DNA from: Phycisphaerales bacterium UBA2396
GTDB taxonomy: Bacteria > Planctomycetota > Phycisphaerae > Phycisphaerales > UBA1924
Direction: 5' to 3'
Length of the DNA: 64,000 nucleotides
NCBI GenBank assembly: GCA_002343325.1
Contig: DDSG01000029.1
Coordinates: 4,718 to 68,717, forward strand
Shown: one piece after another, positions 11,783-33,449 of the stretch
Position numbering within the stretch: position 1 is the stretch's first letter
Layout: each line of letters begins with the position of its first letter
Translations under genes and position numbers: made by a program
The notes under the pieces: generated by a model
What the model saw: the letters and a program-made list of their open reading frames with translations, nothing else
Told to the model about the DNA's origin: nothing
The model's database searches: none

Positions 11783-15628
<3,846 letters not shown>

Positions 15629-15904
15629 GCTTGCCCTCGCCAGAAACGATGCATGCCGCCGGCGGAGAGAACTCCGCCGCGGTCGATGCAAACCGTGTCG
15701 TCAGATCGTTCGAAGTGTCACGCCCGCTGCCGTACCGAGTCAGTGGTGCTTGCCCAGGATCGCCGCCGCTGATTCGTTCGCCTGCGGGTACGGAAGGCCG
15801 CCCCAATCGGCAGAACCCACCAGTCTAAGCACCCCCGCGAGCGGAATCGACAACAATTCTTGAACTTTTCGGCAAAGCACGTGCCACTTCGGACCGAGTC
15901 CCGC

Positions 15905-15952
15905 AGTTACCCAAACAAAAACAAACCGGGCCGACCCTTTCGGATCGGCCCG
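15905..15952 (-). terminator. rho-independent terminator downstream of the PEP-CTERM gene (minus strand)
   Basis: On the minus strand: CCGGGCCGATCCGAAAGGGTCGGCCCGG followed by TTTGTTTTTGTTTGG. Confidence 0.6.
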
Positions 15953-16006
15953 GCAGAATGCTAGCGTTGCTCACGAGATCAGGGTGTTGATCCCGCGAAG
16001 CGGTGC

Positions 16007-16687
16007 TCAGCGACGACGACGGCTGGCGACCAGACCGCCCAGACCCAGAAGGGCCAGAGCGCTCGGGGCCGGGACGACATCGCCCGACAGGGTGAAGGCC
16101 AGATCGGAGGGCCCGCCGAAGATGGCCGTACCAGCAGTCGGGTTCGTCCCGAAGCCGAAACCACCACCCGGGTTGTGGAAGAACGACTCGCTGCCGTTGG
16201 CGGTGGCCGCCTCGGCCCAGAACCACTGACCACCGCCGGTGAAGGGGCGGTCAACCCACGCCGCCAGCCAGTACGTGCCCGCGCCGAGCGTCACGCCGGT
16301 GAGGTCGAACTGGAGGTCCGAGCCGACCTGAACGCCAACGCCGGCAGCGTAGACCACGCCGGGCGTGTTGCTCGCCACGTCCACGATCGCGTAGCGGACC
16401 GCGGCATTAAAGCTGCCGTCGCCCGCCTCGACGCCGTAGACCGTCAGCGACGTCAGGTTGTACGCGGACGACAGGGTGAAATCATCGAAACCGAGCGTCG
16501 AGAAATCAGGGAAGTCGCCGAAGGCCTGCGAGACGCGGCCGATGCCCGTGCCGGCAGGCTGCTGATCGATGATCGTCGAACGCTGCGACGCGCCACCCGT
16601 GACCGCGCCCTGGCCGGACGTGGTGGGGTTGGCGACAGCGACGCCGGCGAGACCGGCCACGGAAACGAGAGCGAGCAAACGAGTCAT
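16007..16687 (-). CDS. secreted protein with PEP-CTERM-type sorting signal, inserted between rplL and rpoB
   Basis: Signal peptide MTRLLALVSVAGLAGVAVA. C-terminus GDVVPAPSALALLGLGGLVASRRRR. Gly/Thr/Ala-rich body with no known domain. Confidence 0.7.
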   Translation of the reverse strand: MTRLLALVSVAGLAGVAVANPTTSGQGAVTGGASQRSTIIDQQPAGTGIGRVSQAFGDFPDFSTLGFDDFTLSSAYNLTSLTVYGVEAGDGSFNAAVRYAIVDVASNTPGVVYAAGVGVQVGSDLQFDLTGVTLGAGTYWLAAWVDRPFTGGGQWFWAEAATANGSESFFHNPGGGFGFGTNPTAGTAIFGGPSDLAFTLSGDVVPAPSALALLGLGGLVASRRRR

Positions 16688-16809
16688 GTCTACCTCTCCT
16701 TCAAAGAGCGAACCCCACGCCACATGGCGGGGGCCAACAAACCTCATGCTCGAAGGAGTGGGCCGCGCAACGCGCGCGGGTCTTGTCCCTCTCTCCCTCG
16801 GGCTGTGTC

Positions 16810-16838
16810 AATCTATCCGACCCCTGAGAAGGTGTCAA
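16810..16838 (-). promoter_or_regulatory. sigma70-like promoter for the PEP-CTERM gene (-35 TTGACA, 17 nt spacer, -10 TAGATT, minus strand)
   Basis: Reverse complement reads cgcTTGACAccttctcaggggtcggaTAGATTgacac. A second TTGACA lies just downstream. Confidence 0.45.
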
Positions 16839-16929
16839 GCGATTCATGAAGTCCCCAGCAACTCCTCACCGCCGCTGCCAGCTCAATCCCACGAGCAAGC
16901 CGTTCTCGGACGACCGAAACGCCGCGGAA

Positions 16930-16962
16930 ATGAAAAAACCCCGGGATATCCCGGGGTTTTGT
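16930..16962. terminator. rho-independent terminator after rplL (bidirectional hairpin)
   Basis: AAAAAACCCCGGGATATCCCGGGGTTTTGTGTG: a perfect 7-bp GC stem flanked by an A-tract and a T-tract, 20 bp downstream of the rplL stop. Confidence 0.65.
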
Positions 16963-16983
16963 GTGCCTTGTTGGGGCAGAAAC

Positions 16984-17373
16984 TCAGGCGAGCTCGACGG
17001 TGGCGCCGGCCTCGGTGAGGGTCTTCTGGAGCTTCTCGGCCTCGGCCTTGTCGACGCCCTGCTTGACGGCCTTGCCCGGGGCGTCCACGAAGGCCTTCGC
17101 CTCCGCCAGACCCAGGCCCGTCGCCTCGCGGACGACCTTGATGACGCCGATCTTCTTGGCGGCGTCGACCGCCTTGAGGATCACGTCGAAGGAGGTCTTC
17201 TCCTCGGCCTTGGGAGCGGCAGCAGCAGCGGCCGCGACAACGACACCACCGCCCGCGGCGGCCTCGATGCCGTACTTGTCCTTCATGTACTTCCCGAGCT
17301 CGACCGCGTCCTTGAGGGACAGGCCGGCGAGTTTGTCACCCAGTTCAGCGATGTGCGTAGCAACGTCGGACAT
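16984..17373 (-). CDS. rplL: 50S ribosomal protein L7/L12
   Basis: [40 protein letters not shown]...[16 protein letters not shown]...ATVELA. Start at the internal Met (the longer ORF's N-terminal extension is not L12-like). Confidence 0.95.
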
Positions 17374-17538
17374 GGAAACTTCCTTTCCTGCCGCGGAGGA
17401 TGCCCCCCGCGTCGAACACTCCTGAGAGGGGCCGAAACACTCGGCCTTTACCCCGGACACGCCGGGCCAGTCGGGAGCTGATCTGCTTGCAAACCAACCA
17501 CTGCGGATCGACCGACCCATCCGGATCGGCCGACCTGA

Positions 17539-18084
17539 TCAACCAACCTTCGCGATCGTCTCGCCCTTTTCGAGCTTCTGCTCGATGGCCTTGACGATCC
17601 CCGCGACGTTCGAGCCGGGGCCCTTGATCGCGCCCAGGAGCTTGCGCCCGGGGCTGATGACCAGGGTGACCGCCTGCCCGATCGCCTCGTCCCGCGTGGG
17701 GAACTTGGACAGCTCGGTCACGCCGGCCTTGCCGGAGTAGAGCGTCCCGTCGAGCACCGCGCCCTTGAGCTCAAGGGCGGGCATCTTCTCGACGAACTTG
17801 CAGACTTCGCGGGCGATCTCAACGACGGACTGACCGCCGTACGCCACCGCGCTGGATCCGCCCAGGAGCCCGGCGAGCGGGGAAAGCCCCGTCCCCTCGA
17901 ACACCTTGGCGGCAAGCGCGTTGCGGACGACCGTCACGCGGATCTTCTTCTTCGAGAGCTCGCTGCGCAGCTTGACCTGATCCTTGGACTTCAGCCCGCG
18001 GATCCCGATCAGCAGCCCGTCGCTGCTCTCGCCCAGGCGGGACTTGTAATCCCGCATCATGATGGACTTGATGGTCTTGGACAT
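17539..18084 (-). CDS. rplJ: 50S ribosomal protein L10
   Basis: MSKTIKSIMMRDYKSRLGES...KVFEGTGLSPLAGLLGGSSAVAYG, typical of L10. Confidence 0.95.
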   Translation of the reverse strand: MSKTIKSIMMRDYKSRLGESSDGLLIGIRGLKSKDQVKLRSELSKKKIRVTVVRNALAAKVFEGTGLSPLAGLLGGSSAVAYGGQSVVEIAREVCKFVEKMPALELKGAVLDGTLYSGKAGVTELSKFPTRDEAIGQAVTLVISPGRKLLGAIKGPGSNVAGIVKAIEQKLEKGETIAKVG

Positions 18085-18119
18085 GGTTCACCTCGCGGCG
18101 CCGAGCCGGCGCTTGTGCG

Positions 18120-18818
18120 TTACTCGGCAGCCACTGCGGACACGTACTTGATCTGAACACTCGGCGTCATCGCCCCGCTCACCACGACCTTCTTGATGTA
18201 CGTCCCCTTCACCGTCGAAGGACGAATCTTCTCGATGGCCTTGATGAAGTGCTCGATGTTCTCGGCGAGCGCCTCGGGGGCGAAGCTCATCTTCCCCACC
18301 ACCGCATGGACGTTCCCGCCCTTGTCGGTGCGGTACTCGACCTTGCCGGCCGCGTACTCCTTCACCGCCTCGGGGACGTTCGTCGACACTGTGCCGGCCT
18401 TGGGGCTGGGCATCAGGCCCTTGGGGCCCAGGACCTTACCCAGACGCGACACGATGCGCATCATGTCGGGCGACGCGACCGCAACGTCAAAGTCCATCCA
18501 GCCCTTCTCGATCTCCGCCACCAGCTCTTCGCCGCCGGCCTTGATCGCGCCCGCCGCCATCGCCTTGGGGGCGATGTCGCTCTGGCAGAAGGCCACCACG
18601 CGCTTCGTCTTGCCGATGCCCTTGGGCAGGCTGATCGAACCACGCAACGCCTGATCCGCCTGCGCCGGGTCAACGCCCAGGTGCATGCAGATGTTCACGG
18701 TCTGATCGAACTTGGGCGCCTTGAACTTCTTCAGCGCCTGCACCGCTTCCGAGGCCGGCAGAGACTGAGCCGGGACCAGGGCCGCGTTCGCCTTTGCTCG
18801 CTTGTTGATTCGCGACAT
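18120..18818 (-). CDS. rplA: 50S ribosomal protein L1
   Basis: MSRINKRAKANAALV...KFDQTVNICMHLGVDP...KGIGKTKRVVAF...GKMSF. Confidence 0.95.
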   Translation of the reverse strand: MSRINKRAKANAALVPAQSLPASEAVQALKKFKAPKFDQTVNICMHLGVDPAQADQALRGSISLPKGIGKTKRVVAFCQSDIAPKAMAAGAIKAGGEELVAEIEKGWMDFDVAVASPDMMRIVSRLGKVLGPKGLMPSPKAGTVSTNVPEAVKEYAAGKVEYRTDKGGNVHAVVGKMSFAPEALAENIEHFIKAIEKIRPSTVKGTYIKKVVVSGAMTPSVQIKYVSAVAAE

Positions 18819-18822
18819 GGGT

Positions 18823-19254
18823 TCAGCCCTCCACCACGGTAATGCCCATCGAACGGGCCGTGCCCTCGATGATGCGGATGGCCGCCTCGGGTGACCCGGC
18901 GTTCAGGTCCGCCGCCTTCACGTCGGCGATCTTCTTGCACTGGCTCTTGGTGATCTTCCCGACCTTGTTCTTGTTCGGGACGCCCGAGCCCTTCTCGACG
19001 CCCGCCGCTTCCTTGATCAGGACGCTCGCCGGGCTCGACTTGATCTCAAGCTCGAAGCTCTTGTCGCTGTACAGCGTGACCAACGCCACAACGATCTTGC
19101 CCTTAAAGGCCTGCGTCGCCGCGTTGAACTTCTGCGTGAACTGCCCGGGGTTGACACCCTTGGAGCCCAGCACGGGACCCAGAGGCGGTGCAGGCGTCGC
19201 CTGCCCACCGGGCGCCATCACCTTGAAAACGTTGATGACTTCTTTCTTGGCCAT
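18823..19254 (-). CDS. rplK: 50S ribosomal protein L11
   Basis: MAKKEVINVFKVMAPGGQATPAPPLGPVLGSKGVNPGQF...KITKSQCKKIAD. Start at the internal Met. Confidence 0.95.
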   Translation of the reverse strand: MAKKEVINVFKVMAPGGQATPAPPLGPVLGSKGVNPGQFTQKFNAATQAFKGKIVVALVTLYSDKSFELEIKSSPASVLIKEAAGVEKGSGVPNKNKVGKITKSQCKKIADVKAADLNAGSPEAAIRIIEGTARSMGITVVEG

Positions 19255-19465
19255 TGTCCTCACCTCCCACCGGCCGTGGAACGGGATTGCCCGGTCCAAC
19301 CGCGGCCCCTGGCTTCGAGGGCCGCCGGCTCGGTGGTTCTGACGGTTCCACCCTGATTGTCACCCCGGGCACGCGCCCGAAGAGAGGGGCCTCAACACTA
19401 GCCCTCCACCCCTCGGCAAACAACCCTCCCACTCTGTTCTGACACCCACATCCCCCTCCCACGCC

Positions 19466-20419
19466 TTACTTCACACCCTGTTCTGGAGAACCCGGGCCGG
19501 GCTGCGGCGGCGACTTTGGTGCCGCCGCTTCCTGTGGCTTGATGTCCGCCGGTTTATTCCTGCGCGGATCGACCGCGGCGATCGCCGCCGCGAATCGGTC
19601 CGCGATCTCACGCTCCAACCCGGCCTCTCTCGCCCGTTCAAGGGGCTTGGTCGCCAGCGCGAGGCGTCCCTCGCTCTGAAGCAGAACGACCACGGCGAGC
19701 CACGCCGACGCCGACTTGGTCCGGTTCGCGTGCTTGGTCGCCTCGACGACCATGTCGCGGATCCGGCCGGCGTCCTGACCGGTTGAAGATCCCTCGAACG
19801 GGCGATCGACCAAGGTCGGGTCCTTCCGGTAGATCTCCCGCCACAGGGCGACGGCGTCGTCGAGCTGCTTGGATTCGAGCAGGGCCGCCCCGTACTGGCG
19901 GGTGGCGTCGAGATCGCTCGGATTCTCCTTCAGGTGGATCCGAAACTGGGTACGTGCCTCGTCGAAGTTCCTCTGACGAACCGCGGTCCGGGCTTGCTCG
20001 ATCGGGGGAGGTGGAGGGGGCGGGGGTTGCTTGTCCAGTTCCTCGCGGATCTGCTTCATGACGGCGGCGTTCATGCCGGGGACGAGGTTGGCGTCGGAGG
20101 TTCGCGGGATGAAGCCCGTGACCTGCGGGTATTGGCGGTTCCATTCGCGTTGGTAGTAGACGGGGTAGCCCCATCCGCCGGCCCAGCCGTTGTTGAGCCA
20201 GCCGGAGCCGTTGGACCAGATGGTGGTTTGGCCGGTGCAGGTGCTGCCCCAGTTGATGTTGTTGTTGAGGTTGAAGCCGAGGCTCCATTTGCGGCCGGTG
20301 TACGAGCCGCTGAGGTTGAAGCCAGAGTTGTTGTTCTTGGATTGTGCGAAGGCGGGAATCGCAGGGAGGAGCGACAGACCCGCGGCAAAGAGCAAGGGCA
20401 GGTAACCGCGCGTGTTCAT
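19466..20419 (-). CDS. secreted protein with an Asn/Gly/Trp-rich low-complexity region, a poly-Pro linker and a TPR-like helical C-terminus
   Basis: Signal peptide MNTRGYLPLLFAAGLSLLPAIPAFAQS. Then NNNSGFNLSGSY...GWLNNGWAGGWGYPVYY, PPPPPPPPP, then a helical repeat region. Start at the internal Met of the 428-aa ORF. Confidence 0.55.
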   Translation of the reverse strand: MNTRGYLPLLFAAGLSLLPAIPAFAQSKNNNSGFNLSGSYTGRKWSLGFNLNNNINWGSTCTGQTTIWSNGSGWLNNGWAGGWGYPVYYQREWNRQYPQVTGFIPRTSDANLVPGMNAAVMKQIREELDKQPPPPPPPPIEQARTAVRQRNFDEARTQFRIHLKENPSDLDATRQYGAALLESKQLDDAVALWREIYRKDPTLVDRPFEGSSTGQDAGRIRDMVVEATKHANRTKSASAWLAVVVLLQSEGRLALATKPLERAREAGLEREIADRFAAAIAAVDPRRNKPADIKPQEAAAPKSPPQPGPGSPEQGVK

Positions 20420-32997: not shown

Positions 32998-33449
32998 CCG
33001 CGCTTGATCAGCACCAGCCCCCCGAGCATGAGCGCCACCCCGGCGACCCGCTGCACCGAGATCTCGCGCACCGCCAGCCCGAGCAGCCCGTAGTGGTCGA
33101 GCACCATCGACGCGATCAACTGCCCGACGATCATCGCGGCAAGGTAGTTCGCCGCGCCGACCTTGGGCACCAGCACGAGCGCGAGCGTGACGAAAAACGC
33201 CCCGCAAAGCCCTCCCGCCCACATCCACCAGGGCCCCGCGCCGAGCGACTCGGCCCGAGGCACGCCCGGGCGGAACGCCGCCGTCACCACGAGCATCGCG
33301 AGCAAGCCGACCGCGAAGTTGATCACCCCACCATAGACCTTTGCCCCCGCGTGCTGGGCGAACTTCGCGTTGATGGCGGGTTGAAGGGCCGTCGCCACCC
33401 CGGCCAGCAAGGCCAGTGCCAGGTACAACAGATTCTGCGGTGAGAGCAT
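32994..33449 (-). CDS. DMT-superfamily membrane protein (DUF606/YdcZ-like)
   Basis: Four TM helices (LLYLALALLAGVATALQPAINAKFAQ...), typical of the YdcZ family. Start at internal MLSPQNL. Confidence 0.6.
   Translation of the reverse strand: MLSPQNLLYLALALLAGVATALQPAINAKFAQHAGAKVYGGVINFAVGLLAMLVVTAAFRPGVPRAESLGAGPWWMWAGGLCGAFFVTLALVLVPKVGAANYLAAMIVGQLIASMVLDHYGLLGLAVREISVQRVAGVALMLGGLVLIKRG

Follow-up and report, generated by a model that had tools for sequence, protein, structure and literature searches.

Why does a gene for a secreted protein lie between rplL and rpoB, neighbours whose order is treated as near-universal in bacteria, and how are the RNA polymerase genes downstream of it transcribed? 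We addressed these questions in a window of 64,000 nucleotides from a Tepidisphaera-like Phycisphaerae genome whose source is a bioreactor-sludge metagenome. The open reading frame (ORF) list places the order rplK-rplA-rplJ-rplL-rpoB-rpoC on the minus strand throughout, from position 19254 to 7358; Pfam labels for this cluster were taken from the identical contig L059. The rplL product is identical to protein P0121, which carries Pfam Ribosomal_L12, and RpoB shares 98.8% identity with RpoB of the relative L001 and about 90% with that of Tepidisphaera sp. Instead of direct adjacency with a leader alone, we found a gap of 1355 nt (15629-16983) made up of non-coding DNA and a 226-aa gene, in agreement with the spacer of about 1.35 kb given in a preliminary description of this DNA. 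By sequence and ORF list, all features named in that description are present on the minus strand where it had placed them (Table 1).

Table 1 Features of the rplL-rpoB region, with positions in the window or residues of the inserted protein.
Feature	Position	Strand	Evidence or description
rpoB, 1281 aa	11783..15628	-	ORF list; start ATG 15628, MTAQKTFYP...
Conserved rpoB leader with blocks CUGCCGWUUGGGGC and CCCGCAGGCGAACG	15629..15815	-	alignments
Candidate sigma-70-like rpoB promoter, TCGATT-17-TAGACT	15822..15850	-	alignments
TGGCACGTGCTTTGC, sigma-54-type -24/-12 core and inverted repeat GGCA..TGCC	15872..15886	-	motif search, alignments
Putative intrinsic terminator or attenuator after the inserted gene	15915..15954	-	13-bp stem, GAAA loop, UUUGUUUUUGU
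226-aa secreted surface protein gene	16007..16687	-	homologues, dN/dS, structure model, TIGR02595
Signal peptide, ...AVA cut before N	aa 1-19	-	sequence, alignment
Beta jelly-roll domain, about 170 aa	about aa 35-205	-	AlphaFold2
PEP-CTERM-type tail VPAPSALALLGLGGLVASRRRR	aa 205-226 (nt 16010-16075)	-	TIGR02595
Shine-Dalgarno AAGGAG	16696..16701	-	sequence; 8 nt ahead of ATG
Conserved stem-loop, predicted mRNA 5' end	16748..16803	-	alignment, folding
Predicted sigma-70-type promoter of the inserted gene, TTGACA-17-TAGATT	16810..16838	-	pattern scan
Putative intrinsic terminator after rplL	16925..16960	-	11-bp stem, 4-nt loop, then UUUUUUCAUUU
rplL (ribosomal protein L7/L12), 129 aa	16984..17373	-	ORF list and sequence

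The gap contains a protein-coding gene under purifying selection

The inserted ORF has 122 homologues with E-values down to 1e-131, and a profile search with its protein family returned 3635 cluster representatives (50% identity). With a dN/dS of 0.33-0.37, the coding status proposed in the preliminary description is borne out: the ORF is a protein-coding gene under purifying selection. High-GC genomes yield many long chance ORFs and several ORFs overlap this one on both strands, as would be expected if it were spurious and the 1.35-kb gap a plain long non-coding rpoB leader. Besides the homologues, the profile matches and the dN/dS, a confident predicted fold and the conservation of both signal peptide and sorting tail speak against such a reading, which the conservation and selection tests have already refuted and to which we give practically no weight.

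The strong Shine-Dalgarno sequence keeps its GAG core in relatives and reads GGAG in all copies but one. A longer reading of 246 aa from the ATG at 16747 lacks support because all 12 of the closest homologues begin with M[TV]R[LI][LI]. The GC3 of the ORF (0.83) resembles that of adjacent genes. Its codon usage resembles that of highly expressed genes, with a CAI_HE/CAI_BG of 0.966; on small reference sets, genes for ribosomal proteins and RNA polymerase range over 0.90-0.98 and the other genes over 0.77-0.91. The gene evolves fast.

The product is a PEP-CTERM-type protein with a predicted jelly-roll domain

The N-terminus is a Sec signal peptide, MTRLLALVSVAGLAGVAVA, cut ahead of NPT; its basic n-region, the hydrophobic core and the AxA site were recognized by eye and are conserved in the alignment. 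At the other end the tail runs in the order VPAP, membrane helix, RRRR, with the hydrophobic stretch SALALLGLGGLVAS followed directly by the four arginines and the stop codon, and the AlphaFold2 model has a helix at residues 208-224. TIGR02595, whose cut-off is 16 bits, scores this tail at 18.7 bits with residues 205-226 aligned to positions 1-22 of its 24, and it matches 32 of 57 aligned family members at E<=0.01. Pfam PF07589 gives 18.6 bits against a cut-off of 20.7; it matches 44 of the 57 at E<=1, and many distant members have precomputed PF07589 matches. Some homologues carry the JGI name MYXO-CTERM, which we rejected for the window protein as TIGR03901 reaches 14.1 bits against a cut-off of 20 and the tail has no Cys. 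No other PEP-CTERM-like tails were found in the 64-kb window.

AlphaFold2 predicts a beta sandwich with a C-terminal helix at a pLDDT of 82.9, with the core above 90. Pfam DUF7901 matched none of the 57 small family members and one giant member. A fold search returned weak, generic jelly-roll matches, namely PBCV-1 P1v1, a phage baseplate domain, PHR domains and carbohydrate-binding modules. The family takes two forms, small PEP-CTERM proteins and repeats within giant surface proteins, and as a large unmodelled beta jelly-roll family of about 3600 representatives at 50% identity it is a candidate for follow-up.

According to Haft et al. 2006 (PMC1569441), a gene for a PEP-CTERM protein typically forms an operon by itself and has a large region upstream. 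The inserted gene likewise appears to form a unit of its own, with a sizeable stretch of non-coding DNA ahead of it. Like the exosortase substrates described by TIGR02595 and PF07589 (PMC1569441), its protein begins with a signal peptide and ends in Pro-x-Pro, a hydrophobic helix and an Arg cluster, and the sample is again environmental (sludge). It differs from these substrates in its tail and its globular domain. The Pro-Glu-Pro tripeptide is absent at the start of the tail, where the Glu is missing: every member found at the rplL-rpoB junction, the one in the window included, has V-P-A-P instead, and VPEP, VPTP or LPAP occurs in more distant members. Neither Pfam nor NCBIfam has a model that matches the globular domain. 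A score above the TIGR02595 cut-off, the signal peptide and the distant members with VPEP together uphold the earlier assignment as a secreted PEP-CTERM protein. Exosortase would cleave the tail after export and so fix the jelly-roll domain to the cell surface or matrix. Since the fold matches are weak and generic, a binding or structural role of the anchored domain at the surface is putative.

The gene is inherited within its clade and the junction is loose in Phycisphaerae

In relatives whose RpoB is 90-99% identical, the gene is found at the same place between rplL and rpoB. This synteny extends over L001-L010, L059-L062 and L082, and in L004 and L010 the junction comprises a phosphodiesterase-like gene and two copies of the PEP-CTERM gene. 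None of the homologues at or below 53% identity that have enough flank to judge lies near rplL or rpoB. The comparison of the spacer across relatives, suggested in the preliminary description, thus revealed a conserved ORF at the same place, and gene order indicates that the gene has been inherited within a clade of genus or family rank and is not a fresh insertion. The expression "inserted into the spacer" holds in that the gene occupies the gap, and it does not hold as a recent arrival, since the relatives share the place.

Two observations might nevertheless suggest recent horizontal insertion of mobile cargo, new to the spacer of this genome alone: a promoter and terminators of its own enclose the gene, and family members have a sporadic occurrence in other phyla, among them MAGs labelled Fimbriimonadales, Acidobacteriota and Flavobacteriaceae. 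The synteny contradicts it, with the same gene at the same place where RpoB is merely 90% identical. The gene is native in GC and GC3, neither direct nor inverted repeats flank it, and no integrase or transposase is among the ORFs of the gap. Moreover, dS of the ORF relative to the window copy is 0.58-1.14 and that of rplL and rpoB 0.31-0.60, which is the same order if somewhat higher for the ORF. A recent insertion is therefore highly improbable in our view, and a mobile element was rejected for want of flanking repeats and of any compositional anomaly.

We also sampled five more distant Phycisphaerae through RplL. Direct adjacency of rplL and rpoB was found in one of the five, L069, where rplL is followed by a terminator and then rpoB, and where a 695-aa gene lies between rplJ and rplL. 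The junction of L067 holds a DUF4041/MUG113 gene, and in L065, L066 and L068 rpoB is not adjacent to rplL. In L063 a phosphodiesterase-like gene stands alone at the junction. It was considered as a PEP-CTERM homologue and rejected, being 64% identical to the L004 neighbour and containing no PEP-CTERM remnant. The preliminary description had assumed that the rplL-rpoB spacer normally holds a leader alone; because the junction contains another gene or rpoB is located elsewhere, this premise of near-universal adjacency fails in the sampled Phycisphaerae. It also fails in Bacilli, where rsmC (ybxB) lies between rplL and rpoB, and in Lactobacillaceae nrdHEF is inserted between rplL and rsmC (Brandis 2021, PMC8046335). 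Like those insertions (PMC8046335), the gene studied here is clade-specific, is neither a ribosomal nor a polymerase gene, lies between rplL and rpoB in their orientation, and belongs to an arrangement that some descendants later rearrange or lose. Unlike them, the cargo is a secreted surface protein with its own predicted promoter and terminators and not a reported operon member.

Both PEP-CTERM proteins and genes at the rplL-rpoB junction are thus already known kinds, while in the literature searched we found no description of such a junction gene in Phycisphaerae. Clade inheritance and the frequent occupation or breakage of the junction in this group make the arrangement less surprising, and on gene order it is best seen as a modest lineage quirk. 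Across the class, rplKAJL and rpoBC would be separate units whose junction repeatedly gains, swaps and loses genes, and the inserted gene may be tolerated because the two were already separate. Gene order that is treated as near-universal is loose in Phycisphaerae, with the junction as an apparent recurrent landing site, and this matters for operon prediction and for the use of the cluster as a synteny anchor in Planctomycetota.

Predicted transcription signals frame the inserted gene

The putative promoter of the inserted gene is the sole sigma-70-like match in 2.4 kb, with 0.1 expected from shuffles; the TTGACA/TAGATT element of the preliminary description is present, and its activity is predicted. 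The geometry recurs upstream of orthologues in L082 (TTGACA-17-TACCTT), L005 (TTGACG-17-TATGTT), L079 (TTGACA-17-TATGTT) and L085 (TTGCTC-17-TAACTT); upstream of the gene in L001, the closest relative at 73% identity, no recognisable TTGACA/TAnnTT promoter was found.

Next to the promoter, at the predicted 5' end of the transcript, lies a stem-loop of the layout GGGAG-AGA-GGG-ACAAGAC-CCGCGC-loop-GCGCGG-CCC-A-CUCC. The block is invariant in all copies, tandem paralogues included, and folds with -30.5 kcal/mol (z -3.9). Compensatory C-G to A-U changes occur in L005 and in copy 1 of L004, and in a model-fitted alignment 92% of cells pair compared with 44-58% when the partners are slid. No second copy of the 5'UTR block is present in the 64-kb window with 3 mismatches allowed, and a covariance-model search gave no copy upstream of distant homologues. 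An exact 18-mer of the block has 18 matches in metagenome contigs. Three are upstream of homologues; of the remaining 15, all in unrelated DNA, 11 are copies of a single AT-rich stretch and none adjoins a homologue. Hence there is no sign of a wider regulon. The stem-loop is restricted to the inserted gene in its clade.

The leader of ompA is a 5'-terminal stabilising stem-loop on the mRNA of an abundant envelope protein. The element described here is similar in being a stable conserved hairpin within a few nt of the predicted start, on the message of a probably abundant exported protein. It differs in having no sequence relationship to ompA-type leaders, in lying at a 5' end that is itself predicted, and in being gene- and clade-restricted. 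By analogy, it may stabilise the message as the ompA leader does, and this gene-specific hairpin is a second candidate for follow-up.

Both flanks of the gene carry the stable GC-rich hairpin and U-tract of Rho-independent terminators, and the pattern scan called the two sites. The hairpin after rplL (16960-16935) folds with -19.8 kcal/mol (z -4.8) and the one downstream of the inserted gene (15954-15925, followed by TTTGTTTTTGT) with -29.2 kcal/mol (z -5.7); in either case none of 200 shuffles folded as well. The downstream stem covaries at two pairs and its T-tract is invariant in L001, L004, L005, L008 and L010. The two flanking terminators proposed earlier are accordingly found as stable folds, downstream with stem covariation, and their activity is predicted. 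An Rfam scan of 15000-20000 at E<=1 returned a single chance viral match and no L10 leader or known RNA. Promoter geometry, 5' leader and downstream terminator all recur in relatives. The gene would thus be transcribed from its own sigma-70-type promoter, with intrinsic terminators insulating it on both sides.

A conserved promoter-like region precedes rpoB

The spacer between the ORF and rpoB measures 378 nt and is 91.5% identical in nucleotides to that of L001, compared with 75.8% for the ORF. Within it, 15629-15904 is the best-conserved non-coding DNA of the locus. The preliminary description had foreseen an rpoB promoter in this interval, and conserved promoter-like blocks of predicted activity do lie there. 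The candidate sigma-70-like promoter has a weak -35 (TCGATT) that falls below the threshold of the pattern scan. Around it the blocks GTCGAT and GTGyTTAnACT are conserved, and the -10 reads TAGACT, TACACT or TATACT, with TACCAT in L063 and TAACCT in L067. The leader blocks that follow do not vary among relatives and persist in L067 despite its different insert, and a leader hairpin at 15656-15682 displays two compensatory pairs. The conserved spacer, its promoter-like blocks and a leader that a relative without this insert also retains favour separate transcription of rpoBC, and the leader and promoter region are a further candidate for follow-up.

In E. coli, the rplL-rpoB intergenic region of about 320 nt holds an attenuator with a partial terminator. 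On this precedent rpoBC might lack a sufficient promoter of its own and be fed by read-through from the promoters of rplKAJL and the strong one of the inserted gene, with 15915-15954 acting as a partial terminator that sets the level of rpoBC. The two loci are alike in having a hairpin and U-tract upstream of rpoB, on the strand of rplL, with a long leader next. All the genes here are on the same strand, the candidate promoter ahead of rpoB has the weak -35 missed by the scan, and the T-tract UUUGUUUUUGU shows no change even at its G interruptions whereas the stem covaries, which suggests a tuned rather than a maximal terminator. On the other hand, in this locus a gene and a promoter stand between two terminators, no Rfam family matches, and transcription from the rplKAJL promoters would need to read through both strong hairpins. 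The conserved promoter-like blocks lie downstream of the second terminator, and L067, with another gene upstream, keeps the leader as well. Finally, rpoB is unlinked from rplL in L065, L066 and L068 and a terminator directly follows rplL in L069, so rpoBC must be self-sufficient in related lineages. Taken together, we consider an attenuator fed by read-through unlikely. The probable explanation of the locus as a whole is a genuine single-gene surface-protein unit, inherited in its clade, with rpoBC transcribed mainly from its own promoter region and a long structured leader downstream of the terminator of the insert.

A sigma-54-type motif lies between the inserted gene and rpoB

The promoter region of rpoB also contains TGGCAC-N5-TTGC (TGGCACG-N4-TTGC), a perfect sigma-54 core that is intergenic, in the right orientation and about 245 nt upstream of the start codon. 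This pattern occurs twice in the 64 kb, compared with 0.15 matches expected. The second match (33407-33421) lies inside a membrane-protein CDS, where it encodes LALALLA, and therefore gives no support for sigma-54 use. The motif ahead of rpoB was found at the orthologous place in 14 related loci, and its GG and GC are kept in all clade members, L063 included. In these respects it is like sigma-54 (RpoN) promoters. Unlike them, it precedes a housekeeping core gene, and we know of no case in which rpoB is a sigma-54 target. The motif is palindromic as well, and in L067 its place is taken by another palindrome. No RpoN box or GAFTGA motif was found in the six-frame translation of the 64-kb window. 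In proteobacteria, PEP-CTERM genes are preceded by a sigma-54 motif; here, none is upstream of the PEP-CTERM gene and the sigma-54-like motif is downstream, before rpoB.

That an enhancer-dependent sigma-54 promoter (TGGCACG-N4-TTGC at 15886-15872) drives or gates rpoBC in the Tepidisphaera-like clade is doubtful, and we rate it somewhat below the attenuator. Only in this case would the jelly-roll family, the rpoB leader and the 5' hairpin change current understanding. RNA polymerase synthesis would then depend on an activator ATPase and its signal, and the enhancer would be expected in the DNA that the surface-protein gene takes up.

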